A DNA stretch of 64,000 nucleotides from an uncultured Acidimicrobiaceae bacterium (lineage in GTDB: Bacteria; Actinomycetota; Acidimicrobiia; Acidimicrobiales; SZUA-35). Shown here in pieces: positions 213 to 28,290 of this stretch; the first letter of the stretch is position 1, and each line of letters opens with the position of its first letter. A program made the translations under genes and the position numbers. The stretch is from assembly GCA_964551835.1 (NCBI GenBank), contig CAZKEM010000094.1, positions 12,868 to 76,867 of the forward strand, read 5' to 3'. The notes beneath the pieces were generated by a model, which searched no databases, was not told the DNA's origin, and saw nothing but the letters and a program-made list of their open reading frames with translations.

Positions 213-1955
213 ATGAGCGAGAATCTTAGGCTCTTAAAGCGTAGCTTCGAACTGATCGACCGGTCGCTTCAAATACGACTTGGAGCCTTGGCAGTTGTTG
301 CTTTAGTGATCTCGGGCCTCGACGCTCTCGGCGTGTTGCTTATGTTGCCACTGGCGAAAGTCGTTGGCAACGGCGAAGAATCGATCGACCTTCCCCTTTG
401 GGAGTCTGCAAGCCCAACTGCTTTGCTTGGGGCGAGCGTCGGATTGTTTATCGGAAAGTCCGTAGCTACGGCAGTGTTGCGTTGGTGGACTTTGGGTGTG
501 ACTCTTAGGTCGGGGAGTCGCGCCGCTACGAAAATGTTTGATCGCTATATGGCAGCGCCGGTTAGTTTTTATGACTCGCGGAATAGTGCAGACGCGGTTC
601 GAACAGTCATGGTTTCGGTCAGAAACTTTTTCCAACAAGGTGTTATTGGTGCGACTAACTTAATCGCCGAGTCTATTACTTTGGTCGTGTTGGTCATCGT
701 GTTACTCGTTCAGTCGCCAATCACAGGTTTGGTCGCTTTCGTATATTTTGGTTTAGCTATCATCTTTTTTGGTCGAGTAGTACAACGGAACACCACGCGT
801 CTTTCAACCGAGACTCAGAACTTGACTGCCGAGGGCATCCAGCTGGTTCAGGAAGGGCTCGGCGCGCTTACTGAGCTTCGGGTGAGGCAGACTACACGCT
901 ATGTGACTGGCCCGTTCGGTCAGAAGCAGGACGAGATCCAGAAGAGTAGACGTGTGGTCCTTTTCGCAGGAGAGCTAGCTCGCTATTATCTAGAAATTGT
1001 TTTTGTCGGTGCAGTGGGACTAGTCGCCGGCTCGGTGCTTCTCTTCTTCCCCTCGGACGAGTTTCTGCCAACCCTGGCTTTGTTTCTTGTGGTCGGCTTT
1101 CGGGCGTTGCCAAGCATTTCTCGTCTCTTGGTGGCGGCAAACAGTGTTCGTGTGGGGCGATCATCTCTTGGAATTGTCTGCGAAGACCTCGACGCAATGA
1201 AAGCCGCCGGTCGAGAAGAATCTTCGTTGGAGAAAGTGGCGGTTCCTGGTCCGGCTCGTCTCTTGGTAGACAATATAGATTTTGCTTATAGCAGTGAGCT
1301 GGTGCTAGATGGGATCTCAATCGATTTAGAACCGGGTGGTTCACTTGGTTTGCTTGGGTCTTCAGGGTCCGGGAAATCAACCCTGCTCGAAATAATTTGT
1401 GGTTTACGTAGTCCAAGTGGAGGAAAGGTTGACGTTAGGCCAGAAGGCGCACAAGAGTCTGAAACTGCCAGCATCGGATATGTTCCGCAGAGCGTGTTCA
1501 CCATCGATTGCACGGTCTTCGAGAACGTAACACTAGGCCGGGAAGCCACGGAAGAGCAAGTTTGGGAGGCTCTGGAGACTGCGTGTGCCGCCGACTTTGT
1601 TCGAGCTCTCCCCCAGGGTTTGTTGACTAACGTCGGGGAGTCGGGGACGCTGTTGTCCGGCGGGCAGCGTCAGAGACTGGGACTGGCACGGGCATGTTTA
1701 ACCAGACCTGGCCTTCTGATTCTGGATGAAGCAACTTCGGCGCTCGATTCTGAAACCGAGGCAAGCGTTGTGTGTTCGCTTAATCAGCTCCGTGAACATA
1801 CATCTTTGGTCGTGGTCACCCATCGTCCGTCTACGCTCAGATTTTGCGATTCAGTCCTTGAGATCTCTGACGGCAGAGCCCAAAAGGTAACAGCCGATGT
1901 CGAAACAATTGACCTTGAGGAAACCGAGGCTCGGAGGGAGGTCACCTCTCGGTGA
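213..1955 (+). CDS. ABC transporter, fused permease/ATPase (MsbA/PglK-type exporter)
   Basis: 580-aa ORF. The N-terminal ~300 aa are hydrophobic (about 6 TM). The C-terminal NBD has Walker A 'GSSGSGKST', signature 'LSGGQRQR', Walker B 'LLILDEATSALD' and H-loop 'VVVTHR'. Confidence 0.85.
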   Translation: MSENLRLLKRSFELIDRSLQIRLGALAVVALVISGLDALGVLLMLPLAKVVGNGEESIDLPLWESASPTALLGASVGLFIGKSVATAVLRWWTLGVTLRSGSRAATKMFDRYMAAPVSFYDSRNSADAVRTVMVSVRNFFQQGVIGATNLIAESITLVVLVIVLLVQSPITGLVAFVYFGLAIIFFGRVVQRNTTRLSTETQNLTAEGIQLVQEGLGALTELRVRQTTRYVTGPFGQKQDEIQKSRRVVLFAGELARYYLEIVFVGAVGLVAGSVLLFFPSDEFLPTLALFLVVGFRALPSISRLLVAANSVRVGRSSLGIVCEDLDAMKAAGREESSLEKVAVPGPARLLVDNIDFAYSSELVLDGISIDLEPGGSLGLLGSSGSGKSTLLEIICGLRSPSGGKVDVRPEGAQESETASIGYVPQSVFTIDCTVFENVTLGREATEEQVWEALETACAADFVRALPQGLLTNVGESGTLLSGGQRQRLGLARACLTRPGLLILDEATSALDSETEASVVCSLNQLREHTSLVVVTHRPSTLRFCDSVLEISDGRAQKVTADVETIDLEETEARREVTSR

Positions 1956-3232
1956 CTACGATACTGATAGTTGCCTCAGTGCTCGCTGGCGGTGTGCTGA
2001 TCTACGCCAGGAATGCACGAGCGTCGCTAATCGTACTTCTGATCGTAACGGCGCTTCTTTCAGGCTCGGAAAATGAGACTGTCAATTTTGTTGGGATACA
2101 GGTTCGACGGCTTTGTATAGTCTTTCTAGCCTTACTCGTCTTAAGGAACAAGAGTAGGCTGCCTAAGTCGGTAGTTTGCCTAATTGGTGCATCGCTAGTC
2201 GGTATCTCCGGTCTTCTGCAGGCCGACGCTCCGGAGTCTGGTCCCACGTTATTGGCTTCAACTTTTCTCTTGCATCTTCCTGCAGCGATCACGATCCGTA
2301 GTTGGGTAGTTGAGCCCGGAAACAAAGAGAAAATCGGAAGAATCTTCATCTTTGCAGCGTCGATTCATGGCTTGTTGACAGCGGTCTATCTGAGAGATTT
2401 TACCGGCGAAACTAGGTTCGCGGGGGCTGGGTCTAACGCTCCGTTATTCGCATTTGCGGGCGGCGCCTTGCTGTCGGCTCTCCTCTGGGGTTTGTTCTAC
2501 GAGAAGGGACAAACCAAGCTGGTGTGCATCCCGCTACTGCCAATCACGATTTTGCTCACCCTTCTTGGGGCCCAGCGTTCGGGTTTGCTTTCGCTAGGAG
2601 CGGCCGTGATTCCCTTCTTGGCGTTGGGCTTGATCCGTTACCCGATGAAGATGTTGAAGATAGTATCCGGATCTATTGTCACGGTTTGGCTAGTCGTTTC
2701 AAATTCGACGCTGTTCGATTTTGCGTTTGAACGTTTTTCTACGCTCGACTCGAACGGGCGAGACGAACGATGGAACTCAGCCTGGGAGCTGATCAGGCAA
2801 CGTCCGGTTTCAGGATGGGGCCCCGGGTCTAGGGAGGAAGTCGGGTTTGGTGTCCACAATTCCTTCGTTTCGATCTGGTTGGAGCTCGGGATAGTCGGTC
2901 TCATACTCTGGGTAGCTGCGATAGTGATTGCCTTAAACAGCTGTCTCAAGGTGTTGTCACGTTATAAGTCTGACGGTGAAGGAGTGGCCCTTCTATCGCT
3001 GAGTTGGTTATCGGTTTGTGTGGCCTTTGCCCAGGTAGAGGACAAGCTATATCGTCCGTCTAATCTTCCTGCAGTTGTCTTCCTCTTGGCTCTGCTTACC
3101 GCCTCAGTCGTAGCGGATCATAGAAACGTTGCGTTGGGGCGGCATCTGTCGCGTGTCGGAGGTGCATGGTCCAGCCGCCACCGAAATTGGGCTCTACCGG
3201 TCGGCCAGTTTCGGCAAGAAGCGAAGCAATGA
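1952..3232 (+). CDS. Wzy_C / O-antigen-ligase-like polytopic membrane protein (polymerase, ligase or O-oligosaccharyltransferase type)
   Basis: 426-aa ORF whose GTG start overlaps the upstream stop by 4 nt (GTGA). It has many hydrophobic segments. The loop 'RWNSAWELIRQRPVSGWGPGS...GVHNSFVSIWLELGIVGLILW' resembles the Wzy_C domain pattern. Confidence 0.7.
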   Translation: MTTILIVASVLAGGVLIYARNARASLIVLLIVTALLSGSENETVNFVGIQVRRLCIVFLALLVLRNKSRLPKSVVCLIGASLVGISGLLQADAPESGPTLLASTFLLHLPAAITIRSWVVEPGNKEKIGRIFIFAASIHGLLTAVYLRDFTGETRFAGAGSNAPLFAFAGGALLSALLWGLFYEKGQTKLVCIPLLPITILLTLLGAQRSGLLSLGAAVIPFLALGLIRYPMKMLKIVSGSIVTVWLVVSNSTLFDFAFERFSTLDSNGRDERWNSAWELIRQRPVSGWGPGSREEVGFGVHNSFVSIWLELGIVGLILWVAAIVIALNSCLKVLSRYKSDGEGVALLSLSWLSVCVAFAQVEDKLYRPSNLPAVVFLLALLTASVVADHRNVALGRHLSRVGGAWSSRHRNWALPVGQFRQEAKQ

Positions 3233-3289
3233 GGGCTTGTTTCGAAGATGCGATACATCTGTGTACGCGGAGCCTAGAAGTAACTGTCA

Positions 3290-4420
3290 GTGACTAAGCC
3301 GGCGATCGTCTTTGTAACGACCATCTTCGAGCCTGTTCGTAATGGCCCAGCTATCTATGTGCAGTACCTGTACGACCACTTTGCCGACTCTCCAGACTTC
3401 GACTTTCACGTCGTCACTTGTGGAGCGGTAAAAGCAAGGCCTAACTTGCATCGTGTCGAGCTCGGGCGAAATTCGTTGGAGACCTACCGGCGGCTGCAGC
3501 GCTCTGCCCTTGACCTGGCCGAGAAGCTTGGACCAGGCACGATTGTTCACGGCAATGTCGCACATACGATGTGGATGTTCAGGAAGTACTCGGGGCCGCT
3601 CGTCGTGCAGGTAAATGACTACGACAACGCTACGGCTCTGAGCAGATGGTTCTGGCATCTCAGGCAACGGCAGTTAAGACGTTTGTTGGTGATGGGCTGG
3701 CGGAAACGAAATGAACGCCGTGTTCTAACTGCTGCTGACGCGGTGATATATAACTCGAAACATACGGCGAGAGAGGTTATGAATCGGTACGGCTTGAAGG
3801 GGGACAAGCATCAAGTTATTTACAAGGCGGTAGATACCTCCCACTTTGCTCGACCTAAAGACAAGAAGTCCCCGGCCTACACGTCACCTCGTCTGGTGTT
3901 TGTTGGCAGCAACTGGCGAATCAAGGGCTTTGATTCTTTGGTACGTGCTCTTGCGATCTTAAAGAAGACGTTCCCAAATGTTGTCCTCGATGCTGTTGGG
4001 CTTGAGATGATCGATCTTTCGGATCAGTTAAAGCAAGAAATTGAAGAAATAGGCGTGTCTGACAATATTCAATTTTCTGGGGTCGTGGAGCGAGAGCAAT
4101 TGCCGCACCACTTTTGGAACGCTGATGTATCACTTCTTCCGAGCGTCAGTGAGGCACTGGGTGTTTCTGTTCTTGAGTCTTTAGCCGCTGGTACACCGGC
4201 CGTGGCTAGTCGAGTTGGTGGAATCCCAGAGATTATCGATGGAAGCGGATGCGGCGTCTTGGTCGAACCCAATTCGCCGAAGGCGTTGGCTGAAGGCATA
4301 TCTGGTGTGTTGAACGGTGACTTTAGAAGGGTCCGACATGATGGTCCCAACCGAGCAAAGGTATTCAGCTTGGACCGAATGGTATCTCAAGTGGCTGATG
4401 TCTATTCGAACTTGGGCTAG
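3290..4420 (+). CDS. glycosyltransferase family 4 (GT-B)
   Basis: 376-aa ORF with the C-terminal motif 'SVSEALGVSVLESLAAGTPAVASRVGGIPEIID' (E-x7-E type). Confidence 0.8.
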   Translation: MTKPAIVFVTTIFEPVRNGPAIYVQYLYDHFADSPDFDFHVVTCGAVKARPNLHRVELGRNSLETYRRLQRSALDLAEKLGPGTIVHGNVAHTMWMFRKYSGPLVVQVNDYDNATALSRWFWHLRQRQLRRLLVMGWRKRNERRVLTAADAVIYNSKHTAREVMNRYGLKGDKHQVIYKAVDTSHFARPKDKKSPAYTSPRLVFVGSNWRIKGFDSLVRALAILKKTFPNVVLDAVGLEMIDLSDQLKQEIEEIGVSDNIQFSGVVEREQLPHHFWNADVSLLPSVSEALGVSVLESLAAGTPAVASRVGGIPEIIDGSGCGVLVEPNSPKALAEGISGVLNGDFRRVRHDGPNRAKVFSLDRMVSQVADVYSNLG

Positions 4421-4487
4421 TCAGGCTATGGCGAACTCATTTTATCGAAGGCCCACACCGGGACAGGTCCAATAGCGGAGAGCAGCC

Positions 4488-5591
4488 CTAAGCTCGTATC
4501 TTGCTTAAAGGGCCACTTGAGAAGTCATCACCTTGCTCGCTTCCAATTGTCGTAGCCAGTCGTTCCGAAAGCGAGTCCACGGTCCACAGTTGGCCGATTC
4601 GTTTAGAGGCTTCGCTCATTGAATGCCTGAGTTCACTATCTTCGACAAGAGCTGCGAGGTAACGTCGCAGCTCTCCTTCATCGTCGAAGATGTAGCCGTT
4701 AGATTTGTTCTCCACTAGATTGTCTGCTCCTGCTCGTACGTGGCGGCTAACAACACATGGAAGACCTGCGATTACGGCGTGGTTGAGCGTTACGCCCCAC
4801 CCGTCGTAGTGCGACGGCATTGCGAAGATGTCTGCAGCAGCGTACTCGCTCGCCAACCGATCAGGACTACAGTTTCCTGGAAGGGTGAGTGAAACTCCGG
4901 CCGTCTTTGCGATAGATTCGAGCTCGTTACGTAGCGGTCCCGAACCACATATTCGCACCTCAACCTTCGTGCGTAGCTCTTCGTTGCTGCACGCCCGTAT
5001 GAGCGCCGCATGGTTCTTCCGACCGATTAGCTGGCCAACGGAAAGGATCCGCGCTCGGTCGCCGTCTGGCTTCGTCCCGTTGTCGATCTCTAAGTCCAAG
5101 GTTTTTTCCGCAAACCCGAACTTATGAATAGATGGCTTGGTGATTCCGGCTGTTCTGAAATCGTCGGCAGCTCCGTCGCCTATTGCGAGGAGTGTTACGG
5201 CTGATGAATTGTAGAATTTTGCAAGCAGCTTGAGCTGATGGCTCGGGTTGGACCGGAAGCCCTCGGATGCAAGCCAGATATGGCGCTTCGCTAGGCGTGC
5301 CATACGGTGACACAGGAGCATACGAATTCTTGGTGTTGCCATGCCAAGCTGGACGACAATTTCCGCCCGGCGGAGCTGGCTTGCCAGATGAAGCCATGCT
5401 TTAGCTGTTCGGTCGAGGCGGTGGACTCCCAACCCTTGCTGCCAACCGAGTTCTGTGCGCTGGGGCGGAAGTGAATCGAAGGCGTAAACGTCGCAAGTCG
5501 CATTCAACTTCTCGCACGAGCTGTGGATGACGTCAAGCAGGTGCGGGTTTGGGTATGGGCAGATTACAAGGACTTTGCTTTTTGTAGGCAC
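4488..5591 (-). CDS. glycosyltransferase family 4-like (GT-B)
   Basis: 367-aa ORF with the donor-binding region 'PSHYDGWGVTLNHAVIAGLPCVVSRHVRAGADNLV'. Convergent with 3290..4420. Confidence 0.7.
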   Translation of the reverse strand: MPTKSKVLVICPYPNPHLLDVIHSSCEKLNATCDVYAFDSLPPQRTELGWQQGLGVHRLDRTAKAWLHLASQLRRAEIVVQLGMATPRIRMLLCHRMARLAKRHIWLASEGFRSNPSHQLKLLAKFYNSSAVTLLAIGDGAADDFRTAGITKPSIHKFGFAEKTLDLEIDNGTKPDGDRARILSVGQLIGRKNHAALIRACSNEELRTKVEVRICGSGPLRNELESIAKTAGVSLTLPGNCSPDRLASEYAAADIFAMPSHYDGWGVTLNHAVIAGLPCVVSRHVRAGADNLVENKSNGYIFDDEGELRRYLAALVEDSELRHSMSEASKRIGQLWTVDSLSERLATTIGSEQGDDFSSGPLSKIRA

Positions 5592-5598
5592 GTCCAGC

Positions 5599-6135
5599 TC
5601 AGCGCTCTAGGTAGTGAGAGTGTGTTTCGCCCGCTTCTAGGTGGCTTAGGACTTGAGCGGGGACGCCAGCGATAACCGACCCATCGGGGAATGACTTCGT
5701 GACGACGGACCCGGCGCCTACGACGCAGTTGTCGCCGAGTTCGATGTCGCCAACTAAGACTGACCCCGCTCCGACAGCTACGTTGTTGCCGAGCCTAGGT
5801 ACGCCGGGTGATCCTGACTTGCGTCCCAACGTGACGTTCTGGGAAATAAGACAGCGGTCGCCTATGACGCTTTTGGAGTGAATTACGACGCCTAAACCCC
5901 AGTAGCCGAGAGTGAATTCCTTTCCGATCGTTGCGGTGCTCGGCAGGGCACATGAGAAGGCCAGCCGATTTATGATACTGATGATCTTAGGTAGGACGGG
6001 AACGCGAGAGCTATGAAGGGCGTGTCCCAAACGGTATAGCAAGACCGGAGGGGAGATAGACGGCCGGTTTGCCTTTCGTCTATCAGGGTTGTCCGAGAGG
6101 TCTATGTCAGGCGAACTGGCGGCGTTTGTTGTCAT
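5599..6135 (-). CDS. hexapeptide-repeat (left-handed beta-helix) O-acetyltransferase, serine-acetyltransferase-like
   Basis: 178-aa ORF with tandem hexapeptide repeats 'IGDRCLISQNVTLG...LGNNVAVGAGSVLVGDIELGDNCVVGAGSVVTKSF'. Confidence 0.75.
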   Translation of the reverse strand: MTTNAASSPDIDLSDNPDRRKANRPSISPPVLLYRLGHALHSSRVPVLPKIISIINRLAFSCALPSTATIGKEFTLGYWGLGVVIHSKSVIGDRCLISQNVTLGRKSGSPGVPRLGNNVAVGAGSVLVGDIELGDNCVVGAGSVVTKSFPDGSVIAGVPAQVLSHLEAGETHSHYLER

Positions 6136-6714
6136 CTTCTCCTCACAATTCCTAGCTCAACGTTGAACTGGTCTAGTAATAATCGGCTGTCTTTTACCTG
6201 TTCCGGTAAGACATGAACTTAGGCCCTAGGCGCAGGGACATGATCAATATCAGGTAGTGATTAAGTCGAACGTCTTTGTTCCCACTAGGCCTGATGCTTT
6301 CTCTGCAACAGCGACGTCGATACGATTATTGGCCACTATCGACATCTCCGAGTTGTCAGATTAGCAAACATCGAGCGCCTAAACTTCGAACCAAGAATAT
6401 TCGGCAAACGGGCCGTAGTGGTCGAAGCGTTCCTTCCGGAACTAGGGATGTAGAAGGCTCGACCCGACCCTCTTGTCCACCACCCGGGCACCGAGGTATC
6501 GGAGCTCTTTCGACAGTGCAGAGCTTCTTGAGCCATGAACGAAAAAGAACTGGTCTTTGGATGGTCGACTTCATACCCGAAGAGCCCCATGTGGTCCCTG
6601 GAAACATGTTGGGAGTGCGGTGTGTCGACCGACGTCAAGAACCGTGGGGACCGAAGATCACAGCATCTTGGTCGTTTGGTGTGCTGTGCCGGATCCTTGA
6701 AGCTCGGCAGTTCA

Positions 6715-7422
6715 TCAGTTCTTGACCAATGCTTCGATTTCATCGATTGACAAGTCTGACAAGACGGTCCTAAAGAACCGCTCGTTGGCTGTGACTTGTT
6801 CGTCTGGCCAATCCCACCACTTAGTCTTCAGCAGCCATTCCCGGATGTTCTCTGCGAACCTATGTTTGATTATCTTGGCTGGTACTCCGCCCACAATTGA
6901 ATAGGGTTCGACGTCTTTGACTACGACGGCGCCAGCAGCGATAATTGCCCCGTCTCCGATCGAGACACCCTTGAGGATTGTGCAGTTTCGTCCAATCCAG
7001 ACATCCGAACCGATCGATATTTCTTCGGTGGAAGAAGCATCGCCCCTGAAGATCGGTCCGAAATCCCCGAGGTTTGTCTGGTAGGTGGATGGGGTTTCAA
7101 TGGGGTGGTCAACTGCAAGGATTGTAAGTCCACCAGCAATTGAGCAGAAGCTTCCGATCTTAATCTTGGAGGGTCCAGATCTAATTACAGAAGGTCCGTT
7201 CACGAAGCTGGCCCGTCCAATCGTGACGTCGCCTGCGACAGCCACTCCGGCTCGTAAACTAGTCCCCTTTCCAAGCTTCACAGCATGTCCGACCCTGCAC
7301 TCGGGTGAGATTATGGAACTAGGGTAGCGTTTCTGAGTCTGTTCAAATGTAGATTGGCGATGAACAGAATCTGCGATCAAGGCTCTCAACCATCGGAAGC
7401 GTAACAAAGTCCTGGTGTTCAT
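6715..7422 (-). CDS. hexapeptide-repeat acetyltransferase, CatB/Vat (xenobiotic acetyltransferase)-like
   Basis: 235-aa ORF containing 'IGSDVWIGRNCTILKGVSIGDGAIIAAGAVVVKDVEPYSIVGGVPAKIIKHRF', followed by a C-terminal extension. Confidence 0.75.
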   Translation of the reverse strand: MNTRTLLRFRWLRALIADSVHRQSTFEQTQKRYPSSIISPECRVGHAVKLGKGTSLRAGVAVAGDVTIGRASFVNGPSVIRSGPSKIKIGSFCSIAGGLTILAVDHPIETPSTYQTNLGDFGPIFRGDASSTEEISIGSDVWIGRNCTILKGVSIGDGAIIAAGAVVVKDVEPYSIVGGVPAKIIKHRFAENIREWLLKTKWWDWPDEQVTANERFFRTVLSDLSIDEIEALVKN

Positions 7423-7438
7423 TGCGCAGACCCGCCCT

Positions 7439-11620: not shown

Positions 11621-11790
11621 CTCGAGCGGAGCGAGAGAAAGAGATCCTATTCCAACATATTGGAGTACCTTACGCCCAGAAATGTCCTTGGCGTCGCCCG
11701 AGAACTGTGAACGTACTAGTTTGCCAAGCAGTCGATTGTTGATAGCTCGACGAGCCTGAGATTGTTGGTTGCGGACTGTCTGTAAGAGGT

Positions 11791-15423: not shown

Positions 15424-16108
15424 ACTTCTTCTCCATTTCTATGATGGCGTCATTTCGGTCGTCCTGAAGTGTCAGGTTTAGGCCGTGTATGTGATACCTA
15501 TATAGAGCAATTGGAAGGTGGAAACCCCTACACCCATTCTGGATAAGCCGGCCAATTAAGTCGTAATCCTCGCACGTCCGGAGTGTCTCGTCGTAACCTC
15601 CAACCTCTTTCAGCGCAGAGGTTCGGAAGAGAACGCCGGCTCCATGTTCGAACAGTTTCTGTTGAGTTGAGAGAGGGACGCGGGACTGTTTGAAACCTAC
15701 TTCGTCGACCCGGTAGTGGTCACAGTACACGAAGTCGATGGCAGGGTTCTCGTCGAGAATTTGTGATGTATAGGTGATGGCAAGTTTGTTCAAGAAGTCG
15801 TCGGCGTCGACCCGCATAATGTACTTGCCTTTGGAAGCATTTATCCCGGCGTTGGATGCACCTCCAACGCCCCGGTTGGTCTCGAGTAGCACTGAAACTA
15901 CGTCTTGTTCATAGGTTTTGATGATCTGCGTCGAATTGTCGGTCGAAGCGTCATCGACGATTATCACCTCAAAGCTCCGCCTAAACACGATTTGATCCAG
16001 GCATGATCGAACCGCCCGGTCAAGAAATTTGCCGCGGTTGAAGTTGGTGATGATCATTGAAACATCAAGGGTTGTCACGAGATGAAATCTCCGAGATTCG
16101 GGTAACAC
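15401..16108 (-). CDS. glycosyltransferase family 2
   Basis: 235-aa ORF with 'VSMIITNFNRGKFLDRAVRSCLDQ', 'IIVDDASTDNS' and the DxD motif 'RVDADDF'. The true start may lie about 15 codons further in. Confidence 0.8.
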   Translation of the reverse strand: MLPESRRFHLVTTLDVSMIITNFNRGKFLDRAVRSCLDQIVFRRSFEVIIVDDASTDNSTQIIKTYEQDVVSVLLETNRGVGGASNAGINASKGKYIMRVDADDFLNKLAITYTSQILDENPAIDFVYCDHYRVDEVGFKQSRVPLSTQQKLFEHGAGVLFRTSALKEVGGYDETLRTCEDYDLIGRLIQNGCRGFHLPIALYRYHIHGLNLTLQDDRNDAIIEMEKKYVSLHDR

Positions 16109-16425
16109 TTCATAGTTAAAACACTGGGTCCATTAGCTCTTGTCGGGCGACCTTTGGAGCAGGAGTTCTTCCACTACTAGTACCTCTTGATACGCGAGGC
16201 CTTTGCTACGAGACCGCACCTTAGCACAGCGTAAAAACAAAAGTGGGTGAAGCCGCGACATTATTTAGGTCGACCATTATTGATACGAATAGCTTGTCTA
16301 ACAATCGACAATTAAGTTGATGTATGGACAGCTAGGGTAGGTTTGATTCGGTCTAATGAAGTTCTTTCGGTAGCCCAAATATGTTGAAGTGTCCGTCCAG
16401 TGGGTTGTTGGCGAAAGTTCGGTTT

Positions 16426-18279
16426 CTATCCTTGTCCGGTGATCGTCCATCGTCGCGCGTTTGCCGTGAAGTGGGTGACCTGGTCAACCTTGGGAGAAGG
16501 GTGCGGCGAGATCGTTTCAGACCGGTAGGAACAAGTACTCAACGTGTCACCAGCTTCGGTTTGTGAAGATGTTGCCCACTCCCAGAATGCAACATTTTTA
16601 GACAGGTCCTCAATCTCCCACCCGTTAGCGCTTGGAGTTACGGATCGTTCGAACTCCAACTCCTTGCCGTGGGCAGATACAGAGAAGTGATCGACTGTCG
16701 AAATAGATACCTTTGGCCAGTCTCCCCAGAGAAATCGGCCTAGTCGGGTCATTTGTTGTTCGCCGGGGATGTGGGGCATGTTGTGATGCTGGGTCTCTGA
16801 CAAATCAGGCTCGCCAGGTTTTGGCTTGTAGCTCCACGTACCTGGGTCGAACACGACCTGCTCGCCGTCGACCCACAGCTCGACATGGCCAAAATCGCAT
16901 TGAGGCGGACGAAACAGTTGATGCTCACCACCACGAATTAGCGCCCGATGTTTGCCATTCACAATGACCGAAAGTCCGGCATCGGGAAACACCTTCGTCT
17001 GCACCCCTTCCGGCTCAGGTTCGTTCGGGAGATACCGCTGAGGCCGACCCCAAAACCAGCAGACGGCTTCGATCGCCGGTCCGCCCCAATCGTAGGTCGA
17101 CCCCTCAATCAACTGAGCGGCCATCAGTAATGTCGGACGGACATCCAAATGGCGGGTCGACGTCAACGGCAAAATATGTGCCCCGTCGTTGTTGCCCCAA
17201 TTACCTGCCGCTCCGTCGCTCTTCTGCGTAATAGCTAAAAGGAACCGGTATGTGCGATCAAGCGCCGACTCCAACTCGTCCGGGACGGCTTTGCCGACGG
17301 ACCGAAACAGCCACATCGCCCAAATGAAGTTCTCCATAAACACTCGGTGGTAGTTCAACGAGTACTGCGATGTGCCGCCATCAGCAAACACGAGCTTCTC
17401 ACACGCCTGAACCAGTAACCGTTCACCCAACCTGCGGTATCGGGCGGCCCGCGCCAAGTCGGGGAACAGGAGCCCGACCGTTATCAGCCCAACGGCTTCG
17501 GAAACGATGTGGTTGTTGTCTTGGCTGCGGGCGTACCGCCAATGCGCCGAGATACGTTGCGCCGTCACGTCGGCAAACTTTGCCAACAGCGTCCTACGTC
17601 CGGGTGTCAGGTAGTCGGGGCCAAACGCTTGGACGGCGAACACGGCAGCCATGAGTCGCAGCGCCGACTCTTGGCCACATGTCCAGTTCACACCATCGTT
17701 CGGCTGATTAGCGTCGCACCAGTCTTCGAACAGCTGCCAGAACACGTCGGGAGCTGCCGTTTCGGGGTCGAAAGCGTGCAGTCTCGCCAGCTTGAATGCC
17801 CATCCAAAGCGAGACGGCTCCCAAATAAGTTTGAGATCGGCTTCGGGTAACTCCCGTACCTCCGACCAATGCTGCCCAATAGGGTACGAGGCCGGGGTGA
17901 TGGGCTCATGATGCCAAGAATCGATATCGCACATCGTTCCGAACACATCGAATTGGCGGTTCTTCAACTGATCAAGTGTGCGGCGAAGATCAGCCTCTGC
18001 CTCTGGCACTTCGTCTCGGAGAAACTGCCCTGCGTCGCTGTTATATAAGGTCAACCACCGAAACGCCTGTGACGGTCCGACATCGAGGTTTTGCCAAGTG
18101 CTCATGGGGGAACGGCGTTTATAGACACCCAACTTGTGTTCGGTCGTCAAAAACAGTCGAGTCGCAACCCAACGCCAACCAAGGGTTTCCAAAACCTTGA
18201 AGCCAAGGCGGACCTTGCCTAAACGCCCTCTGAACTGCGGCGCTAGAACAGAAGGTTCTTCGTTTGGTGCTGATGACAT
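16426..18279 (-). CDS. heparinase II/III-like (alginate-lyase-fold) protein
   Basis: The ORF runs 16426..18330; I moved the start to ATG 18279 ('MSSAPNEEP'). C-terminal 'CDFGHVELWVDGEQVVFDPGTWSY' fits the Hepar_II_III C-domain pattern. Confidence 0.65.
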   Translation of the reverse strand: MSSAPNEEPSVLAPQFRGRLGKVRLGFKVLETLGWRWVATRLFLTTEHKLGVYKRRSPMSTWQNLDVGPSQAFRWLTLYNSDAGQFLRDEVPEAEADLRRTLDQLKNRQFDVFGTMCDIDSWHHEPITPASYPIGQHWSEVRELPEADLKLIWEPSRFGWAFKLARLHAFDPETAAPDVFWQLFEDWCDANQPNDGVNWTCGQESALRLMAAVFAVQAFGPDYLTPGRRTLLAKFADVTAQRISAHWRYARSQDNNHIVSEAVGLITVGLLFPDLARAARYRRLGERLLVQACEKLVFADGGTSQYSLNYHRVFMENFIWAMWLFRSVGKAVPDELESALDRTYRFLLAITQKSDGAAGNWGNNDGAHILPLTSTRHLDVRPTLLMAAQLIEGSTYDWGGPAIEAVCWFWGRPQRYLPNEPEPEGVQTKVFPDAGLSVIVNGKHRALIRGGEHQLFRPPQCDFGHVELWVDGEQVVFDPGTWSYKPKPGEPDLSETQHHNMPHIPGEQQMTRLGRFLWGDWPKVSISTVDHFSVSAHGKELEFERSVTPSANGWEIEDLSKNVAFWEWATSSQTEAGDTLSTCSYRSETISPHPSPKVDQVTHFTANARRWTITGQG

Positions 18280-18310
18280 GTCGGCGCGTCTGGACAGTGC
18301 GGCGGGTGTG
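18168..18310. repeat. left copy of an imperfect ~143-bp direct repeat (5' end plus upstream leader of the heparinase-like gene)
   Basis: The core 18168..18219 matches 19199..19250 at 47 of 52 positions. The motif 'gcggcgggtgt' recurs at the same offset (18299 vs 19329). Confidence 0.8.
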
Positions 18311-18426
18311 TCCGCTTCGCACGTTAGCACAACCGATTTAGCGGTTCAGTTGAATTCCAACAAACTTCGACCTCACCACAGCTGTCGCGGCTGCGGCCTA
18401 ACGTTGAGCTGCAACTCCAAAGTATG

Positions 18427-18804
18427 CTAAACGGTCTGAAGTTGAAAGCCGTCGTACTCCGAAAACGCTCGATCTCTTGAGAACAGGGTAAGTTTGTGAT
18501 TCTGCGCCTGGGCGATGAGCATTCGGTCAAAAGGGTCTCGGTGACGGTTTGGCAACGTACCCGCCGTCCATGAGTCTTCCCAAGAAATTGGTAACTGTTC
18601 GAAACTGTCTTCGCTCAACAGGTCGAACATCTCAGTAGGGAAGCTGAGCTTGCCGATGCGTTCTTTGATCCGCATCTCCCAAGTTGAGACAGCACTTACT
18701 AAAACCAGGTTCTCGGGGTCGGCTATTTGAGCGATAGTTGTGTCGTCGAGTTCGATGCCCGCATACCACCAAATGAGGGCATGGGTGTCAAGAAGGATGC
18801 GCAT
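18427..18804 (-). CDS. vapC: type II toxin, PIN-domain ribonuclease VapC
   Basis: 'MRILLDTHALIWW', 'VSAVSTWEMRIK' and 'HRDPFDRMLIAQA' are the typical PIN acidic motif positions. The gene overlaps the upstream antitoxin gene. Confidence 0.85.
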   Translation of the reverse strand: MRILLDTHALIWWYAGIELDDTTIAQIADPENLVLVSAVSTWEMRIKERIGKLSFPTEMFDLLSEDSFEQLPISWEDSWTAGTLPNRHRDPFDRMLIAQAQNHKLTLFSRDRAFSEYDGFQLQTV

Positions 18805-19051
18805 CGTCACCGGTGGTCTCGGCTAGCCCTTCGAATGAACCCGCAACCCAGTCGGGGGTTTGATCGAAATCGTCAGCCATCGTGATAAGCCCGGCAAGGC
18901 GTCCAGGTTCACGAGGTTTTTGTTCTTCAAGATATGGCACGAGGCGCGCTAGAGGTTTGCCCGACTTTCCCAAAATGATGTTCTCACCGTTCGCGGCCCG
19001 GTCGATCAGTTTAGAAAGGTGTGTCTTAGCTTCGTAGACGTTGATAACCAT
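18788..19051 (-). CDS. type II antitoxin, Phd/YefM family
   Basis: 'MVINVYEAKTHLSKLIDRAANGENIILGKSGKPLARLVP' is a typical Phd/YefM N-terminus. The start is placed at ATG 19051; the ORF extends to 19072. Confidence 0.8.
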   Translation of the reverse strand: MVINVYEAKTHLSKLIDRAANGENIILGKSGKPLARLVPYLEEQKPREPGRLAGLITMADDFDQTPDWVAGSFEGLAETTGDDAHPS

Positions 19052-19198
19052 ATACTGACTGTACTTGGTCAAGTCTAGTCAAGTCAAACCTGCAAGATCT
19101 GGTTGCGAGTTGAGCTACAGCTCGTCGAGAAGGGTTTCCAGTTCGTCGACCAACGCCAGGCGCGACCGGTTTCGCGCATCCACCGTTTACCTGACTCG

Positions 19199-19340
19199 CC
19201 CAACGCCAACCAAGAGTCTCCACAACGTTGAAGCTAAGGCGGACCTTGCCGAGTCGACCTGGAATCGCGTCGGCCTTCGCGACTGTTTTTTTGTCTGTCT
19301 CGGTGGGCATGTACGTGCGGTGAATCGGGCGGCGGGTGTA
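19199..19340. repeat. right copy of the imperfect direct repeat flanking the toxin-antitoxin pair
   Basis: See the left copy (18168..18310). The two copies lie 1031 bp apart with the TA genes between them. Confidence 0.8.
19200..19310 (-). pseudogene. orphan 5' stub (ATG plus 37 codons) homologous to the start of the heparinase II/III-like gene
   Basis: '..GRLGKVRLSFNVVETLGWRW' aligns with 'GRLGKVRLGFKVLETLGWRW' of the intact gene. The motif starts at codon 18 in both copies. After codon 37 the frame runs into the antitoxin region. Confidence 0.6.
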
Positions 19341-19360
19341 TCTAGAACGCTAGCTACTTA

Positions 19361-20536
19361 CTACAGTCCGTCGAGAAGCGATTCTAACTTGGCGGCCAGC
19401 CTCGCACGAGACCGATTCTCTTGCATCCATTGTCTGCCGGCTTCGCCCTGCTTAGCCCGTACTGACCCGTGCAGAGCTTGAATTCTTCGCACGCCGTCGG
19501 CAATCTCAGTAGGCCCTACGGCTTCACCCGATTCGGCTTCGGTGACCATCGATGCAACCTCGCCCGGCGTGTTGGTGACGACTGGTAAACCAGCAGCCAT
19601 ATAGTCGTACAACTTGTTAGGGCTTACCCCGTGATGGAACAAGGGAACGTCGGCCAAACAATGTAGCCCGATGTCGGCGGCGGCGAACAGTTCGGGGATC
19701 TTCTCCTTACTTATCGGTTCTCGAAATTCGACGTTAGTCAGGCCTCGAGCCGACGCGTCAGCTACTAAGTCTCGTTTGGCTACCCCATCTCCAACGAAGA
19801 CAAACAAAGCATCGGTGTCAGCAAGCGATTCAGCTGCGTCGAGCGCCAGATCTAAACCGTTAGCGGGTCCGTGGGCACCGGCGTAGACAATGACAGTTCC
19901 GTCGAAGTTGAACTTTCTGCGCAGCTCCGACCTAGGTTCACCGACAGCGAAATCTTCGGGGTCGGCGCCGTTTGGGACGAAACGTACTTTCATGCCGTCG
20001 ATACCCTCAGCAACAATAGGGTTGGCCGAACCTTTAGCTAGGACAACGATCGTGTCTGCGTTGAGGTAAAGAAGACGTTCTAACCGCTTCAACGAACGAT
20101 AGACCGGCGATGATTCTTCCATCGTCCCAGCATCGATCAGTATCTGAGGCCACAAATCTCGTACCTCCAAAACGAACTTGGCCCGATGGGCTCGAGCAAT
20201 CAGAAGCCCGGCAAGCGCTGCGCCCAGATGTGGTGAAGACCCATACACGACGTCAACGGGTTTGCGAAAGGTTCCACGCAGAAGCGCCCCAGCAGAGTAG
20301 CTTGCCCAGTTGACTATTCGAGTAAAACCGTTGCCTTTATATGGCGTAACGGGAACGGTCTTTAATATCCCGGACGATTTGACCGGCGCCTGGTCGAGCA
20401 TCGACCGGTTGCCGACGATTATGGTTGGCTGCCAATTTTTGAGTTTGGCGAAAAGCTCGACATGGCGAGTTCCCCCGGGTGAGCTTCGGGGGAGCGCAAA
20501 TTGGTTGAGAACCAGCACGCGTTTCTTTCTACTCAT
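19361..20536 (-). CDS. glycosyltransferase family 4, WbuB-like
   Basis: 391-aa ORF with N-terminal 'PGGTRHVELFAKL' and a C-terminal GT-B region 'HGVSPNKLYDYMAAGLPVVTNTPGEVASMV'. Confidence 0.8.
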   Translation of the reverse strand: MSRKKRVLVLNQFALPRSSPGGTRHVELFAKLKNWQPTIIVGNRSMLDQAPVKSSGILKTVPVTPYKGNGFTRIVNWASYSAGALLRGTFRKPVDVVYGSSPHLGAALAGLLIARAHRAKFVLEVRDLWPQILIDAGTMEESSPVYRSLKRLERLLYLNADTIVVLAKGSANPIVAEGIDGMKVRFVPNGADPEDFAVGEPRSELRRKFNFDGTVIVYAGAHGPANGLDLALDAAESLADTDALFVFVGDGVAKRDLVADASARGLTNVEFREPISKEKIPELFAAADIGLHCLADVPLFHHGVSPNKLYDYMAAGLPVVTNTPGEVASMVTEAESGEAVGPTEIADGVRRIQALHGSVRAKQGEAGRQWMQENRSRARLAAKLESLLDGL

Positions 20537-21669
20537 GCTTTAAGTCCTTCGGCTAAGACGTGGGTCATTGCGTTGATCACGGTCTGGATAGATTCGTTGC
20601 TATGAGACGAGCCGCTCGGCAGGCACAGGCCTCGTCTAAACAACGTCTCTGAGGTTTCCCCGCCGATCGTTTCGTTTCGAGCGAAGACGGGCTGTAGGTG
20701 CATGGGTTTCCACGCGGGACGAGCCTCAATGTTTCTGTTCGCTAAGGCGTTACAAACCCTAGTCGGGTCGAAACCTTCGGGGAGCAGTCCAACCGATAGC
20801 CAATGGTTGGGTCGGCTGGTTGCACCAAACGGACACCACCCAAGTTGAGGCAGTTGCCTCCGGTACATTTCGCTAATTTGGCGTCGACGTTCAATCTTTG
20901 GTTCGAGCCCGGTCAACTGGGCCCGGCCTAACGCAGCCAAGACATTCGACATGCGGTAGTTGAACCCAACTTCGGTGTGTTCATAGTGCAATGCCGGCTG
21001 TTTCGCTTGTGTCGACAGATATCGGGCACGTTCGATGGTTTTGGCCGATCCAAGCAGAGCGCCTCCTCCGCTGGTCGTCATAATTTTGTTGCCGTTGAAA
21101 CTTAAGACCGCTGAATGTCCGAACGATCCAGCTGCACGGTCGTTGACCTGCGAACCCAGCGCTTCGGCTGCGTCTTCGATTAGCGGCACGTCGTGCTCCA
21201 TGCACACGACAGAAAGGCGTTCATAGTTAGCACAACTTCCGTAGAGGTCGACTGCCATCACGGCGGCAGGCAGCTTGTTGATAGAAGCTCGTTCTTTGAG
21301 AAATAGCTCCAATAGGTCTGGGTCTAGGCCCCACGTGTCAGGGTCCGAATCGCAGAACACCGGCTTTGCTCCTGTGTAGGTAACAGCAAAAGCGGTAGCC
21401 GCGAATGTTGCCGACTGGACGACTACTTCGTCACCGGGGCCAACGCCAGCGTCTAAAAGAGCCAAGTGGAGGGCACTTGTTCCAGATGCAACGGCGGCGC
21501 ATGCTTCGACGCCCGTGTACGCTGCGAGTTCTGTTTCGAATGCCGACAGTTCGGGTCCTACAGGGGCTATCCAATTGCTGTCAAACGCTCTCAGTAGCGC
21601 TTCTCGTTCGGGCGGCCCAACATCTGGAGGGCTCAGAAAAATGTATTCGGGCACTGCGGCGGTGTCCAT
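20533..21669 (-). CDS. DegT/DnrJ/EryC1/StrS-family sugar aminotransferase (PglE-like)
   Basis: 378-aa ORF with 'ASGTSALHLAL' and the PLP-lysine region 'LSFNGNKIMTTSGGGALL'. Confidence 0.85.
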   Translation of the reverse strand: MDTAAVPEYIFLSPPDVGPPEREALLRAFDSNWIAPVGPELSAFETELAAYTGVEACAAVASGTSALHLALLDAGVGPGDEVVVQSATFAATAFAVTYTGAKPVFCDSDPDTWGLDPDLLELFLKERASINKLPAAVMAVDLYGSCANYERLSVVCMEHDVPLIEDAAEALGSQVNDRAAGSFGHSAVLSFNGNKIMTTSGGGALLGSAKTIERARYLSTQAKQPALHYEHTEVGFNYRMSNVLAALGRAQLTGLEPKIERRRQISEMYRRQLPQLGWCPFGATSRPNHWLSVGLLPEGFDPTRVCNALANRNIEARPAWKPMHLQPVFARNETIGGETSETLFRRGLCLPSGSSHSNESIQTVINAMTHVLAEGLKA

Positions 21670-21812
21670 AGTTTCGAACCTCGGTTTCGTCGTCTACGAA
21701 ACGGGACCTTAGCATACGCAGTTCGGAATAGAGGACGTAGAGATATGCTTTGTTTGTCAAATGCAGTATTCGAACAAGATTGGTATTTAGGGTCTATGTA
21801 TAGATAGTGGAT

Positions 21813-22499
21813 CTAAGAATTGGGTATATAAGATTCCACATCATTGTCTAAAGTTGTAGCCTTCGTAGCTTCTTCTACTTCGCGTAGGTCTATCACGATG
21901 TCGTCTCCCTTCGAAGAGCCAACGAAGCGCGTTGTCGTCGATGTTCCCGCGGCGCTGATGTCCCTGCGTTTGATGACCGAGGCAGCCGTTAGGTACAGGA
22001 TCTTCAAGTCGAGGGCCAGGCTTTGGTTCTCGACATACCAGGCATCCAGCTCTAACTTGTCGTCCCAGGAAATAGCGTTGCGTCCATTGACCTGAGCCCA
22101 GCCAGTTAAGCCGGGTAGAACGTCATGGCGACTTGCCTGACGGCTGCTATAGAGCGGGAGGTAGTCTTCCAGAAGAGGTCGGGGGCCGACCAGGCTCATT
22201 TCACCGCGTAGCACATTAACCAGTTCTGGAAGCTCGTCCAAACTGGTCGAACGCAGAAAACGCCCGAATTTTGTCAGTCTGAGATCGTCGGAAATCGGAT
22301 GTCCGTCACCGTCGACTTCGTCGAGCATTGTCCGGAACTTCACAATTTCGAAAATGGCCCCATCGAGTCCTGGCCGTTTCTGGCGGAACAGGACTGGGCT
22401 TCCCAGGTTGACCTTTACTAAAAGCGCAGTTAAGAGAAGAAGTGGGCTAGCGACTAGCAGCATTAGGGCCGAAACAGCTACATCAAGGGTCCGCTTCAT
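21813..22499 (-). CDS. undecaprenyl-phosphate sugar phosphotransferase (small PglC/WbaP-C type)
   Basis: 228-aa ORF with one N-terminal hydrophobic helix and the motifs 'IVKFRTML' and 'MSLVGPRPLL'. Confidence 0.85.
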   Translation of the reverse strand: MKRTLDVAVSALMLLVASPLLLLTALLVKVNLGSPVLFRQKRPGLDGAIFEIVKFRTMLDEVDGDGHPISDDLRLTKFGRFLRSTSLDELPELVNVLRGEMSLVGPRPLLEDYLPLYSSRQASRHDVLPGLTGWAQVNGRNAISWDDKLELDAWYVENQSLALDLKILYLTAASVIKRRDISAAGTSTTTRFVGSSKGDDIVIDLREVEEATKATTLDNDVESYIPNS

Positions 22500-23194
22500 G
22501 GGCGGCTTTTCTTCAACGTTGCTGGAACCCCGGTCACCGTCTCACCAGGCGGAACGTGCTTCGTGACAACTGCGCCCGCACCGACGACTGCCTCATCCCC
22601 AATTGTCAAACCCTGAAGTACTGTTGCGTTAGCGCCAATGATGGCGTCGGACCCCACAGTCGCGTCGCCGGCTACAAACGCGCCTGGCATCAAACTTGTT
22701 CGGGCACCTACAGAGGCGTCGTGTCCGACTTTCGCCCCGTAGCCGACGTAACAGTCCTTCTTGATGGTCGCTAGCGCTGAGACATAAGCGAGCGCACCAA
22801 CCACTGTTCCGTCTTCGATAAGCGCTCCAGTGGCGAGCACCGCAGTCGGGTGAATGAGTGGGGCGGCCGGCTTTAGGCCAGCCGACGACGCCTGCTCAAC
22901 AAGCGTTTTGCGCGCTTTTGGGTACCCGACTCCTGATATATATCGTCGGCCGGGTAGTAGAGCGTCTTTGATGGGTGAGACGATTGATGTGTTTCGGTCG
23001 ACGAATCGGTCTTTGGTTGGCGAATCGTCAGCGACGAGGATTCGATACTCGTGATCCATGCCGAGCGACTCGATGACGCTCATGACATCGCTAGCGTGGC
23101 CGCTGCCGCCCAGAATTACAATGACTCTTGAGTCGCTCTCCGCTCCGGACGACGGTCTGTTAACGGCAGAAGTATGTTGTTCCATCGAGATCAA
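22496..23194 (-). CDS. NeuD/PglD/VioB-family amino-sugar N-acetyltransferase
   Basis: 232-aa ORF with an N-terminal 'VIVILGGSGHASDV' domain followed by hexapeptide repeats 'IIGANATVLQGLTIGDEAVVGAGAVVTKHV'. Confidence 0.75.
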   Translation of the reverse strand: MISMEQHTSAVNRPSSGAESDSRVIVILGGSGHASDVMSVIESLGMDHEYRILVADDSPTKDRFVDRNTSIVSPIKDALLPGRRYISGVGYPKARKTLVEQASSAGLKPAAPLIHPTAVLATGALIEDGTVVGALAYVSALATIKKDCYVGYGAKVGHDASVGARTSLMPGAFVAGDATVGSDAIIGANATVLQGLTIGDEAVVGAGAVVTKHVPPGETVTGVPATLKKSRP

Positions 23195-28282: not shown

Positions 28283-28290
28283 AAATAAAC

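Follow-up and report, generated by a model that had tools for sequence, protein, structure and literature searches.

A glycan-assembly locus of an uncultured actinobacterium that couples a type-IV ABC exporter to a Wzy_C-family protein

Comparison with described glycan-assembly systems

In the O-antigen pathway of Helicobacter pylori, a glycan linked to polyprenyl diphosphate is moved by Wzk, an ATP-binding cassette (ABC) half-transporter of the PglK type, and WaaL, an enzyme of the Wzy_C family, acts outside (Hug et al. 2010, PMC2841628). In this study, we found a comparable pairing in 64,000 nucleotides of DNA from an uncultured Acidimicrobiaceae bacterium (this whole stretch is referred to as the window), where a glycan locus at positions 213-23194 combines a type-IV ABC half-transporter with a translationally coupled Wzy_C-family protein. 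Like the H. pylori pathway, the locus has an ABC half-transporter and not Wzx or Wzm/Wzt, a Wzy_C-family enzyme that would act outside, and no Wzy/Wzz pair. However, H. pylori is a diderm with a lipid A-core acceptor, scattered genes and WecA priming, whereas the window locus has an apparently monoderm host, translationally coupled genes and PglC-type priming. Our preferred reading, to which we give a probability of about 0.45, is that the ABC exporter flips an acidic repeat unit linked to polyprenyl diphosphate, which the Wzy_C protein then polymerises into a wall or capsular polymer.

Other described systems share different parts of this gene set. The Pgl system for N-glycosylation in Campylobacter jejuni also has a membrane PglF-type dehydratase, a DegT aminotransferase, a PglD-type acetyltransferase, a small PglC transferase and a flippase of PglK architecture. 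Unlike it, the window locus has the Wzy_C protein in place of the oligosaccharyltransferase PglB (STT3), adds genes for nonulosonic acid, N-acetylmannosaminuronic acid (ManNAcA), pyruvyl and acetyl groups, and encodes an exporter that reaches only 187 against 1000 with the PglK model. Neisseria PglL and Pseudomonas TfpO/PilO combine reducing-end priming by a sugar of the N,N'-diacetylbacillosamine (diNAcBac) type with a Wzy_C-domain enzyme, as the window locus does, but they work with a Wzx-type flippase, their oligosaccharyltransferase genes usually lie outside the glycan cluster, and PglL carries PglL_A and Wzy_C_2 regions not found in the window protein. The Gram-positive slg clusters resemble the window locus in their monoderm hosts and in holding an ABC exporter and a Wzy_C enzyme in one glycan cluster; they differ in their two-component ABC-2 exporter (Wzm/Wzt), in an S-layer gene nearby, and in a TPR motif within the oligosaccharyltransferase WsfB or a TPR-containing neighbour (WsaA beside WsaB) (PMC2943079). 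The Wzx/Wzy-type acidic heteropolysaccharides (among them actinobacterial teichulosonic and teichuronic acids and pyruvylated wall polymers) share block-wise assembly on polyprenyl diphosphate by a phosphoglycosyl transferase and several glycosyltransferases, the combination of nonulosonic acid, uronic acid, pyruvate and O-acetyl groups, and a Wzy_C-domain polymerase candidate inside the cluster. In contrast to these, the window locus is without Wzx, Wzz or another polysaccharide co-polymerase (PCP), or a LytR-CpsA-Psr (LCP) protein, and has the ABC half-transporter in the position of Wzx.

The ABC exporter, the Wzy_C protein and their conserved core

The sugar-chain assembly cluster is real and spans about 27 kb: an island made up of about 4.1 kb upstream of the window and window positions 1-23194 occupies the slot between truA and rplM of the ribosomal-protein/rpoA region, as seen from L005 1-8049 and window positions 27626-30032. 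The upstream flank was read on L005, a metagenomic scaffold with 99.97% identity to window positions 1-13232 that reaches 8 kb further, its position 8050 corresponding to window position 1. Its genes lie in the order rpoA, rplQ, truA, two unrelated genes, a 4,6-dehydratase, a wecC-like dehydrogenase and wecB. The locus at 213-23194 is densely packed into two convergent operons that meet at 4420/4488, and neighbouring genes in both overlap by 1-23 nt; a promoter and terminator scan at the convergent junction gave nothing above shuffles. Pfam was run on essentially all non-shadow open reading frames (ORFs) of the window of at least 150 aa. With Pfam and NCBIfam, every gene named in the initial annotation was found in its place. 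Beyond these, the island contains four GT4 and one GT2 glycosyltransferases, three hexapeptide acyltransferases, a heparinase II/III-like protein, an inserted VapC/Phd toxin-antitoxin pair and a nonulosonic-acid block at 11791-15423.

Past the locus, the window carries rplM, rpsI, glmM, a glmS-like gene, alr, tsaE and tsaB. The order rpoA-rplQ-truA-(island)-rplM-rpsI-glmM-glmS...alr-tsaE-tsaB is an actinobacterial one, in which the truA-rplM slot is variable and houses ESX-4 in mycobacteria. In a search of solved structures, RpsI best matched ribosome entries of the PDB, which we take to be those of Mycobacterium and Cutibacterium. Because of this gene order and these matches, the actinobacterial host proposed earlier is supported. 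The genes for export, for the Wzy_C protein and for priming are as follows.

L005 3892-5784, upstream of the window: PglF/CapD-type 4,6-dehydratase, 630 aa (Polysacc_synt_2)
1-127 (L005 7058-8176), forward strand: 3' end of wecB, non-hydrolysing UDP-N-acetylglucosamine (UDP-GlcNAc) 2-epimerase (TIGR00236)
213-1955, forward strand: type-IV (ABCB-like) ABC half-transporter, candidate lipid-linked-glycan flippase (Pfam ABC_membrane and ABC_tran)
1952-3232, forward strand: Wzy_C-family polytopic membrane protein, 426 aa, candidate polymerase or ligase/O-oligosaccharyltransferase (PF04932)
3290-4420, forward strand: GT4a, GT4 glycosyltransferase co-conserved with Wzy_C (Pfam)
20533-21669, reverse strand: DegT aminotransferase, LegC/PglE type (LegC family, 339.8 bits against a cut-off of 420)
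21813-22499, reverse strand: small monotopic PglC-type polyprenyl-phosphate glycosyl-1-phosphate transferase (Bac_transf, 211 bits)
22496-23194, reverse strand: NeuD/PglD-type N-acetyltransferase (NeuD/PglB/VioB family, 160.7 bits against a cut-off of 160.8)

The ABC exporter has six transmembrane-like segments by hydropathy and the architecture of a half-transporter of the type-IV exporter fold, with a transmembrane and a nucleotide-binding domain. It had been called an MsbA/PglK-type half-transporter; the fold and the six segments agree with this, but every equivalog cut-off is missed (MsbA TIGR02203, 214 bits against 602; PglK NF050066, 186.8 bits against 1000). Among the PDB matches listed, PglK (5C73) was the top-scoring half-transporter, aligned over residues 104-556 with 171 bits. 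We use the label PglK-like on the ground of architecture and nucleotide-binding domain, because the transmembrane half matches nothing in the PDB; this half has diverged too far from PglK for the cavity arginines and the external helix that flipping requires to be aligned dependably. The GTGA overlap with the Wzy_C gene is present as described, the GTG start at 1952 overlapping the TGA stop of the exporter gene (1953-1955), and a Shine-Dalgarno-like GGAGGGAGG stands 11-18 nt upstream of this start. Homologues of the exporter with 40-54% identity were found in glycan loci in all six contexts, next to GT4s, epimerases, sulfotransferases or PglF-like genes. The exporter is the sole candidate flippase of the locus, in line with the role first proposed for it, as no other candidate is present in the window or 8 kb upstream.

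Among all stop-to-stop ORFs of at least 200 aa in the window, four proteins have at least four transmembrane-like segments: the ABC exporter, the Wzy_C protein, a MacB/FtsX permease and a DmsC fusion. Within the locus, the polytopic proteins are the exporter and the Wzy_C protein only. Pfam gave no Polysacc_synt/MOP, Wzz, ABC2_membrane, LytR_cpsA_psr or SLH domain in the window ORFs scanned, and no Wzx, Wzz, Wzm/Wzt, LCP or SLH gene is found in the window or 8 kb upstream. The lack of Wzx, Wzz and Wzm/Wzt noted in the initial annotation is thus confirmed both by domain searches and by the hydropathy scan of the whole window. A Wzx or Wzz gene just outside the window, which the initial annotation had named among the things that would count against its reading, was looked for on the upstream side (8 kb), and none is there. 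The remaining ABC systems of the window, one of the MacB/FtsX type and one ABC-F protein, do not make up a Wzm/Wzt pathway. A hidden Wzx in the window was also considered and rejected, because there is no further polytopic ORF.

The Wzy_C protein scores 55.9 bits with PF04932 (gathering threshold 31.7) and has about 12 transmembrane-like segments by hydropathy. Even at E<=5, Pfam gives PF04932 alone, with no PglL_A (PF15864), Wzy_C_2 (PF11846) or TPR, and these three are found in 0 of 75 relatives, so that an identity of the PglL type, considered at first, is not upheld. Its one NCBIfam match is to the uncharacterised EpaQ family (23.6 bits), and neither RfaL nor any other ligase model of NCBIfam matches the protein itself. 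A word-indexed search of 5.8 billion clusters returned three relatives with 43-45% identity, and an exhaustive HMMER search returned 20 at E<1e-30 and 100 at E<1e-10. R209, R270, G290 and H302 are invariant across the 75 relatives; two Arg and one His are the general signature of the Wzy_C superfamily. Weak model matches among these relatives were to TfpM (18), RfaL (15), PEP_O_lig_1 (13) and EpaQ (8). The family profile had no match among PDB sequences, and an AlphaFold2 (AF2) model of the protein was obtained with pLDDT 68.8 and pTM 0.72.

A second locus (L006) contains, in this order, WecC, WecB, an alcohol dehydrogenase (ADH)/GFO fusion, the ABC exporter, a sulfotransferase, a GT4-like gene, GT4a and Wzy_C, with identities to the window or flank proteins of 74% for WecC, 69% for WecB, 49% for the exporter, 45% for GT4a and 45% for Wzy_C. 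WecC, WecB, ABC exporter, GT4a and Wzy_C, five of five being found in L006, form a conserved core that is newly recognised here. Within 8.5 kb, another locus (L011) has the exporter (40%), the same ADH/GFO fusion as L006, a GT4a relative (31%), a sulfotransferase and Wzy_C (40%), and in two more (L003 and L004) a GT4a homologue directly precedes the Wzy_C gene. GT4a flanks Wzy_C in every locus seen, the copies beside it being 45-54% identical in L006 and L003 and 31-33% in L011 and L004. Because no counterparts of the nonulosonic-acid, pyruvyl and acetyl genes are found in L006 or L011, the conserved core can be set apart from a variable tailoring part, and L006 bears sulfotransferases where the window locus has nonulosonic-acid genes. 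In the scan for Wzy_C loci, genome contigs gave one locus and metagenome contigs none.

Two of the related contigs have features of their own. L011 (JAHDDY010000117.1, 1-8513; GC 64%) is labelled "MAG: Rhodobacteraceae bacterium", which suggests either that the contig is actinobacterial and was mis-binned or that the genes passed horizontally into a diderm. In L008, a more distant exporter homologue (40%) lies beside a 455-aa protein with eight transmembrane segments (7743-9110) that has no Pfam match and no match to the hidden Markov model of the Wzy_C clade; it may belong to a different polymerase/ligase family partnering the same exporter lineage.

Sugar supply, glycosyltransferases and tailoring genes

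The initial annotation had described a pgl-like toolkit without a PglF/CapD-type dehydratase. This holds for the window but not for the locus, since such a dehydratase is encoded just upstream. It has CoA_binding_3 and N-terminal EPS_sugtrans-type matches in Pfam and NCBIfam, which place it in the membrane-bound CapD/PglF class; it is followed by the wecC-like and wecB genes and shares an operon with the ABC and Wzy_C genes. The toolkit genes themselves are all present, and the upstream dehydratase completes the set, so that all three enzyme classes of the UDP-diNAcBac pathway (PglF, PglE and PglD) are found in the locus. For the DegT aminotransferase, the LegC family is the top NCBIfam model. 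In the PglC-type transferase, Bac_transf covers residues 2-177 of 228 aa, and the lone hydrophobic segment is at residues 9-27. From these PglF/PglE-LegC/PglD/PglC-like enzymes we infer a complete diNAcBac-type priming route. The upstream epimerase scores 302.6 bits with the wecB model TIGR00236, over its cut-off of 210, and 58.9 with NeuC against a cut-off of 235.9, and the wecC-like nucleotide-sugar dehydrogenase is nearest to UDP-ManNAc dehydrogenases; together, the two enzymes would yield UDP-ManNAcA.

The other genes of the locus, all in the leftward operon, are listed below.

4488-5591, reverse strand: GT4 glycosyltransferase (Pfam, NCBIfam)
5599-6135, reverse strand: hexapeptide acyltransferase, CysE/EpsC/WcaB-like (Pfam, NCBIfam)
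6715-7422, reverse strand: hexapeptide acyltransferase, Vat/CatB-like (Pfam, NCBIfam)
7439-8500, reverse strand: polysaccharide pyruvyl transferase, generic (PF04230 PS_pyruv_trans, 65.9 bits)
8497-9618, reverse strand: divergent GT4-like glycosyltransferase (weak Pfam matches; no NCBIfam match)
9615-10205, reverse strand: hexapeptide O-acetyltransferase, WcaF/Maa-like (Pfam, NCBIfam)
10154-11620, reverse strand: candidate glycosyltransferase for a cytidine monophosphate (CMP)-ulosonic acid (nonulosonic acid), 488 aa (weak convergent matches)
11791-12585, reverse strand: CMP-ulosonic acid synthetase, LegF/NeuA/KdsB class (CTP_transf_3)
12570-13355, reverse strand: short-chain dehydrogenase/reductase (SDR) oxidoreductase, PtmA-like (Pfam; class as PtmA, size similar)
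13355-14368, reverse strand: GFO/IDH/MocA oxidoreductase, PtmF-like (Pfam, NCBIfam; class as PtmF, size similar)
14365-15423, reverse strand: NeuB-family nonulosonic acid synthase (PF03102, 253.8 bits)
15401-16108, reverse strand: GT2 glycosyltransferase (Pfam)
16426-18330, reverse strand: heparinase II/III-like protein, may be a uronate epimerase or lyase-type tailoring enzyme (Pfam)
18427-19072, reverse strand: VapC(PIN)/Phd-YefM toxin-antitoxin cassette within the operon (Pfam)
19361-20536, reverse strand: GT4 glycosyltransferase, WcaI-like (Pfam, NCBIfam)

The block at 11791-15423 resembles the LegI, PtmF, PtmA and LegF genes of legionaminic-acid loci in enzyme classes and sizes (PMC4481668, Table 5). 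Like those of Plesiomonas, the window locus has a synthase, a GFO-type oxidoreductase, an SDR, a CMP-transferase, a NeuD-type acetyltransferase and a LegC-family aminotransferase of matching sizes; unlike them, it is without LegG/NeuC or the nucleotidyltransferase PtmE, and its dehydratase is of the membrane PglF type and not LegB (PMC4481668). The NeuB-family synthase scores 338.9 with TIGR03569 (cut-off 399.65) and 253 with PseI. For the CMP-legionaminic acid pathway, five of six steps have candidates, the hydrolysing 2-epimerase being wanting, and the nonulosonic acid is, judging from these enzyme families, most likely of the legionaminic type. A pathway of the Kdn (ketodeoxynonulosonic acid) type, considered to account for the lack of a hydrolysing epimerase, was ranked below it because LegC-family, NeuD-type, PtmF-like and PtmA-like genes are all present.

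Weak matches of the 488-aa protein, each of them to CMP-ulosonic-acid transferases, converge on residues 275-384, with 21.7 bits for Capsule_synth and 23.7 bits for the BFO_1060 family, that of the pseudaminic/legionaminic acid transferase of Tannerella forsythia (PMC5420450). Comparison with WbbB (5FA0) and KpsC (6MGD) pointed to the same residues at E ~1, and an HP motif occurs at residue 301; a single-sequence AF2 model (pLDDT 39) is too poor for a fold comparison with WbbB or KpsC. NCBIfam matches of the GT4s are generic, and none allows an assignment at the level of PglA, PglJ or PglH.

Two irregularities were seen in the leftward operon. The toxin-antitoxin cassette is flanked by 62-nt direct repeats, 85% identical (18168-18229 and 19199-19260), in which the 5' end of the heparinase II/III-like coding sequence is duplicated, and a remnant ORF at 19026-19310 repeats the N-terminal peptide of the heparinase-like gene; 18168-19310 thus looks like a cassette insertion plus a partial gene duplication. 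A 580-bp gap in the otherwise packed operon (6135-6715), with ORFs at 6276-6725 (forward) and 6336-6743 (reverse) that have no Pfam match, may be a decayed gene or a regulatory spacer.

Polymerisation or transfer of the chain

In the mechanism that we propose, the PglF-like dehydratase, LegC/PglE-like aminotransferase and NeuD/PglD-like acetyltransferase would convert UDP-GlcNAc to a diNAcBac-type sugar, which the small PglC-type transferase would load onto polyprenyl phosphate. UDP-ManNAcA would be supplied by WecB and the WecC-like dehydrogenase, and CMP-nonulosonic acid, most likely of the legionaminic type, by NeuB, the PtmF-like and PtmA-like enzymes and the cytidylyltransferase. A unit of about 6-7 sugars would be assembled by four GT4s, one GT2 and the 488-aa protein that resembles ulosonic-acid transferases, with pyruvylation and O-acetylation taking place in the cytoplasm. 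A homodimeric type-IV ABC exporter would flip this lipid diphosphate-linked unit in place of Wzx, and at the outer face the translationally coupled Wzy_C protein would act on it, its most likely role being that of a Wzy-type polymerase. We expect this to yield an acidic heteropolysaccharide, wall-associated or capsular, whose attachment enzymes would be encoded elsewhere. Gene content gives good support to this scheme as far as the flipping step. For the exporter, Alaimo et al. are said to have found in 2006 that PglK can stand in for Wzx in a Wzy-dependent system of E. coli. Several features favour a polymerase. The Wzy_C protein is a compact one of 426 aa with that domain only and no extra extracytoplasmic domain, and it belongs to a very small divergent clade, a pattern typical of repeat-unit polymerases. 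Its gene lies inside the biosynthetic cluster beside a co-evolving glycosyltransferase, and uronic acid, nonulosonic acid, pyruvate and O-acetyl groups are typical of anionic repeat units. Moreover, wall polymers containing nonulosonic acid (teichulosonic acids) are documented in Actinobacteria (PMC11481543).

Other results weigh against polymerisation by this pathway. The single PDB fold match of the Wzy_C model is the WaaL ligase 7TPG (TM-score 0.50, E 5e-4), which supports the fold and not an activity, because the search returned no other member of that fold. The repeat-unit polymerase model weakly matches 4 of the 75 relatives, fewer than the ligase and O-oligosaccharyltransferase models do. 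The transmembrane half of the exporter, searched alone, had no PDB match, and no NeuC/LegG-type hydrolysing 2-epimerase was found, the only Epimerase_2 protein being the WecB equivalog. Wzz/PCP proteins are found neither in the window or upstream flank nor in the related loci, and an LCP ligase neither in the island or the other 40 kb of the window nor in the related loci. Finally, the exporter and Wzy_C are kept as a pair at 40-49% identity across loci with differing tailoring genes, a persistence as compatible with a transferase of relaxed specificity as with a polymerase. Since there is no Wzz/PCP or LCP and the pair is kept across tailoring sets, an en bloc transferase also fits.

The transferase could act on protein, in that the ABC exporter would flip one finished oligosaccharide with diNAcBac at its reducing end and the Wzy_C protein would transfer this en bloc to Ser/Thr of proteins that are secreted or belong to the envelope; such a route would join the logic of Campylobacter (PglK) to that of Neisseria (PglL). 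We hold this possibility tentatively. It would account for the complete PglF/E/D/C-type toolkit without Wzx or Wzz/PCP, for the conservation of the ABC/Wzy_C pair across loci with different glycans, and for the weak matches of 18 of the 75 relatives to the TfpM O-oligosaccharyltransferase model. The coupling of exporter and Wzy_C recalls that of Wzm/Wzt with WsaB/WsfB in Gram-positive S-layer clusters (PMC2943079), and the candidate nonulosonic-acid transferase is similar to the family by which the protein O-glycan of T. forsythia is capped (PMC5420450). On the other hand, no PglL_A, Wzy_C_2 or TPR is found in the Wzy_C protein or its 75 relatives, there is no TPR partner gene, and no acceptor or S-layer gene was identified in the window. 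PglL has about 600 aa and WsaB/WsfB about 780 aa, the slg oligosaccharyltransferases being roughly double the length of the much shorter 426-aa protein, and we know of no Wzy_C-type O-oligosaccharyltransferase in Actinobacteria; both points count against transfer to protein. A Thr/Pro-rich membrane protein 3.6 kb away speaks for it. This protein (26857-27699) crosses the membrane once and has a long extracellular tail that is mucin-like and rich in Thr, Pro, Ser and Glu; it has no Pfam match, and its role as an acceptor is pure speculation. In its widest form, the idea of en bloc ligation is that the conserved core would be a first actinobacterial Wzy_C-type oligosaccharyltransferase system, with a PglK-like flippase feeding a minimal Wzy_C transferase, which is conceivable but doubtful. 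It is with similar reserve that we consider a diNAcBac-primed, nonulosonic-acid-capped, pyruvylated oligosaccharide placed onto envelope proteins or another non-LPS (lipopolysaccharide) acceptor; if true, this would be a case in nature of a monoderm that combines the Campylobacter, Neisseria and Helicobacter pathways.

Ligation to a non-protein acceptor (glycolipid, lipoglycan or another wall polymer), where the exporter would export a finished lipid diphosphate-linked chain and the Wzy_C protein would ligate it as WaaL does, seems unlikely. H. pylori Wzk and WaaL are the nearest case in which experiments have shown a PglK homologue to be paired with a Wzy_C enzyme (PMC2841628). The only fold match is to WaaL 7TPG (TM-score 0.50), the Arg/Arg/His residues are invariant in the 75 relatives, and 15 of these weakly match RfaL. 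WaaL has comparable invariant Arg/Arg/His residues. Yet a match to WaaL is expected of any protein of the Wzy_C fold, the protein itself matches no ligase model, and a monoderm actinobacterium has no lipid A-core, nor does the window hold a candidate acceptor pathway. Of the two readings offered in the initial annotation, protein O-glycosylation and a wall polymer, both remain, but the version of the latter as a CsaB-pyruvylated polymer that binds SLH-domain or S-layer proteins is weak, and we consider it improbable. A PS_pyruv_trans gene is present and WecB supplies ManNAc-type sugars, but the enzyme scores 94.9 bits with the CsaB equivalog TIGR03609 against a cut-off of 213.1, and because this cut-off is widely missed we reject the CsaB/SLH argument; no SLH domain occurs in the window ORFs scanned, and WecB is paired with a dehydrogenase, which leads to ManNAcA and not to the pyruvylated ManNAc of known SLH ligands. 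Least probable is that the ABC protein exports drugs or peptides, is unrelated to the glycan and lies in the locus by chance, and that flipping is done by a Wzx encoded elsewhere. Its transmembrane half has no detectable similarity to solved transporters and all equivalog cut-offs are missed, but its gene is translationally coupled to that of Wzy_C, is syntenic in L006 with wecC/wecB, GT4 and Wzy_C and in L011 with the last two of these, and has homologues in glycan loci in six of six contexts.

Outside the island, several features of the window were recorded. A 412-aa WcaI-like GT4 (25343-26581, 52.6 bits) lies past CAP-domain and SRAP genes; in its present call it shares about 130 nt with the SRAP ORF, and whether or not it is part of the glycan system, it stands outside the locus as first delimited. 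The GlmS-like ORF (30085-33522) has 1145 aa, about twice the usual length, and starts with MCGIVA; Pfam sees one GATase_6 and one SIS in it and no intein domain. Two translationally coupled ORFs at 43323-47200 (964 aa and 328 aa) have no Pfam match at E<=5. A DUF1800/DUF1501 gene pair is located at 50868-54145, and its DUF1501 protein has two C-terminal DUF4214 repeats and a faint match to RsaA_NTD, an S-layer anchoring domain.

In summary, a putative type-IV ABC flippase with a Wzy_C enzyme and without Wzx/Wzz, conserved as a module in uncultured Actinobacteria, varies a logic of glycan assembly that is already known. Should the Wzy_C protein be no more than a polymerase, the locus is an ordinary one for a polysaccharide, if of unusual composition. 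If the ABC exporter replaces Wzx ahead of Wzy_C, the locus would give the Wzk/WaaL route of H. pylori a natural counterpart among monoderms, in the form of a compact module of three genes (ABC exporter, GT4 and Wzy_C) that travels with sulfated or nonulosonic-acid/pyruvate glycans. Such a module, a promiscuous flippase together with a small transferase or polymerase, would interest glycoengineers and would bear on the surface chemistry of uncultured Actinobacteria.

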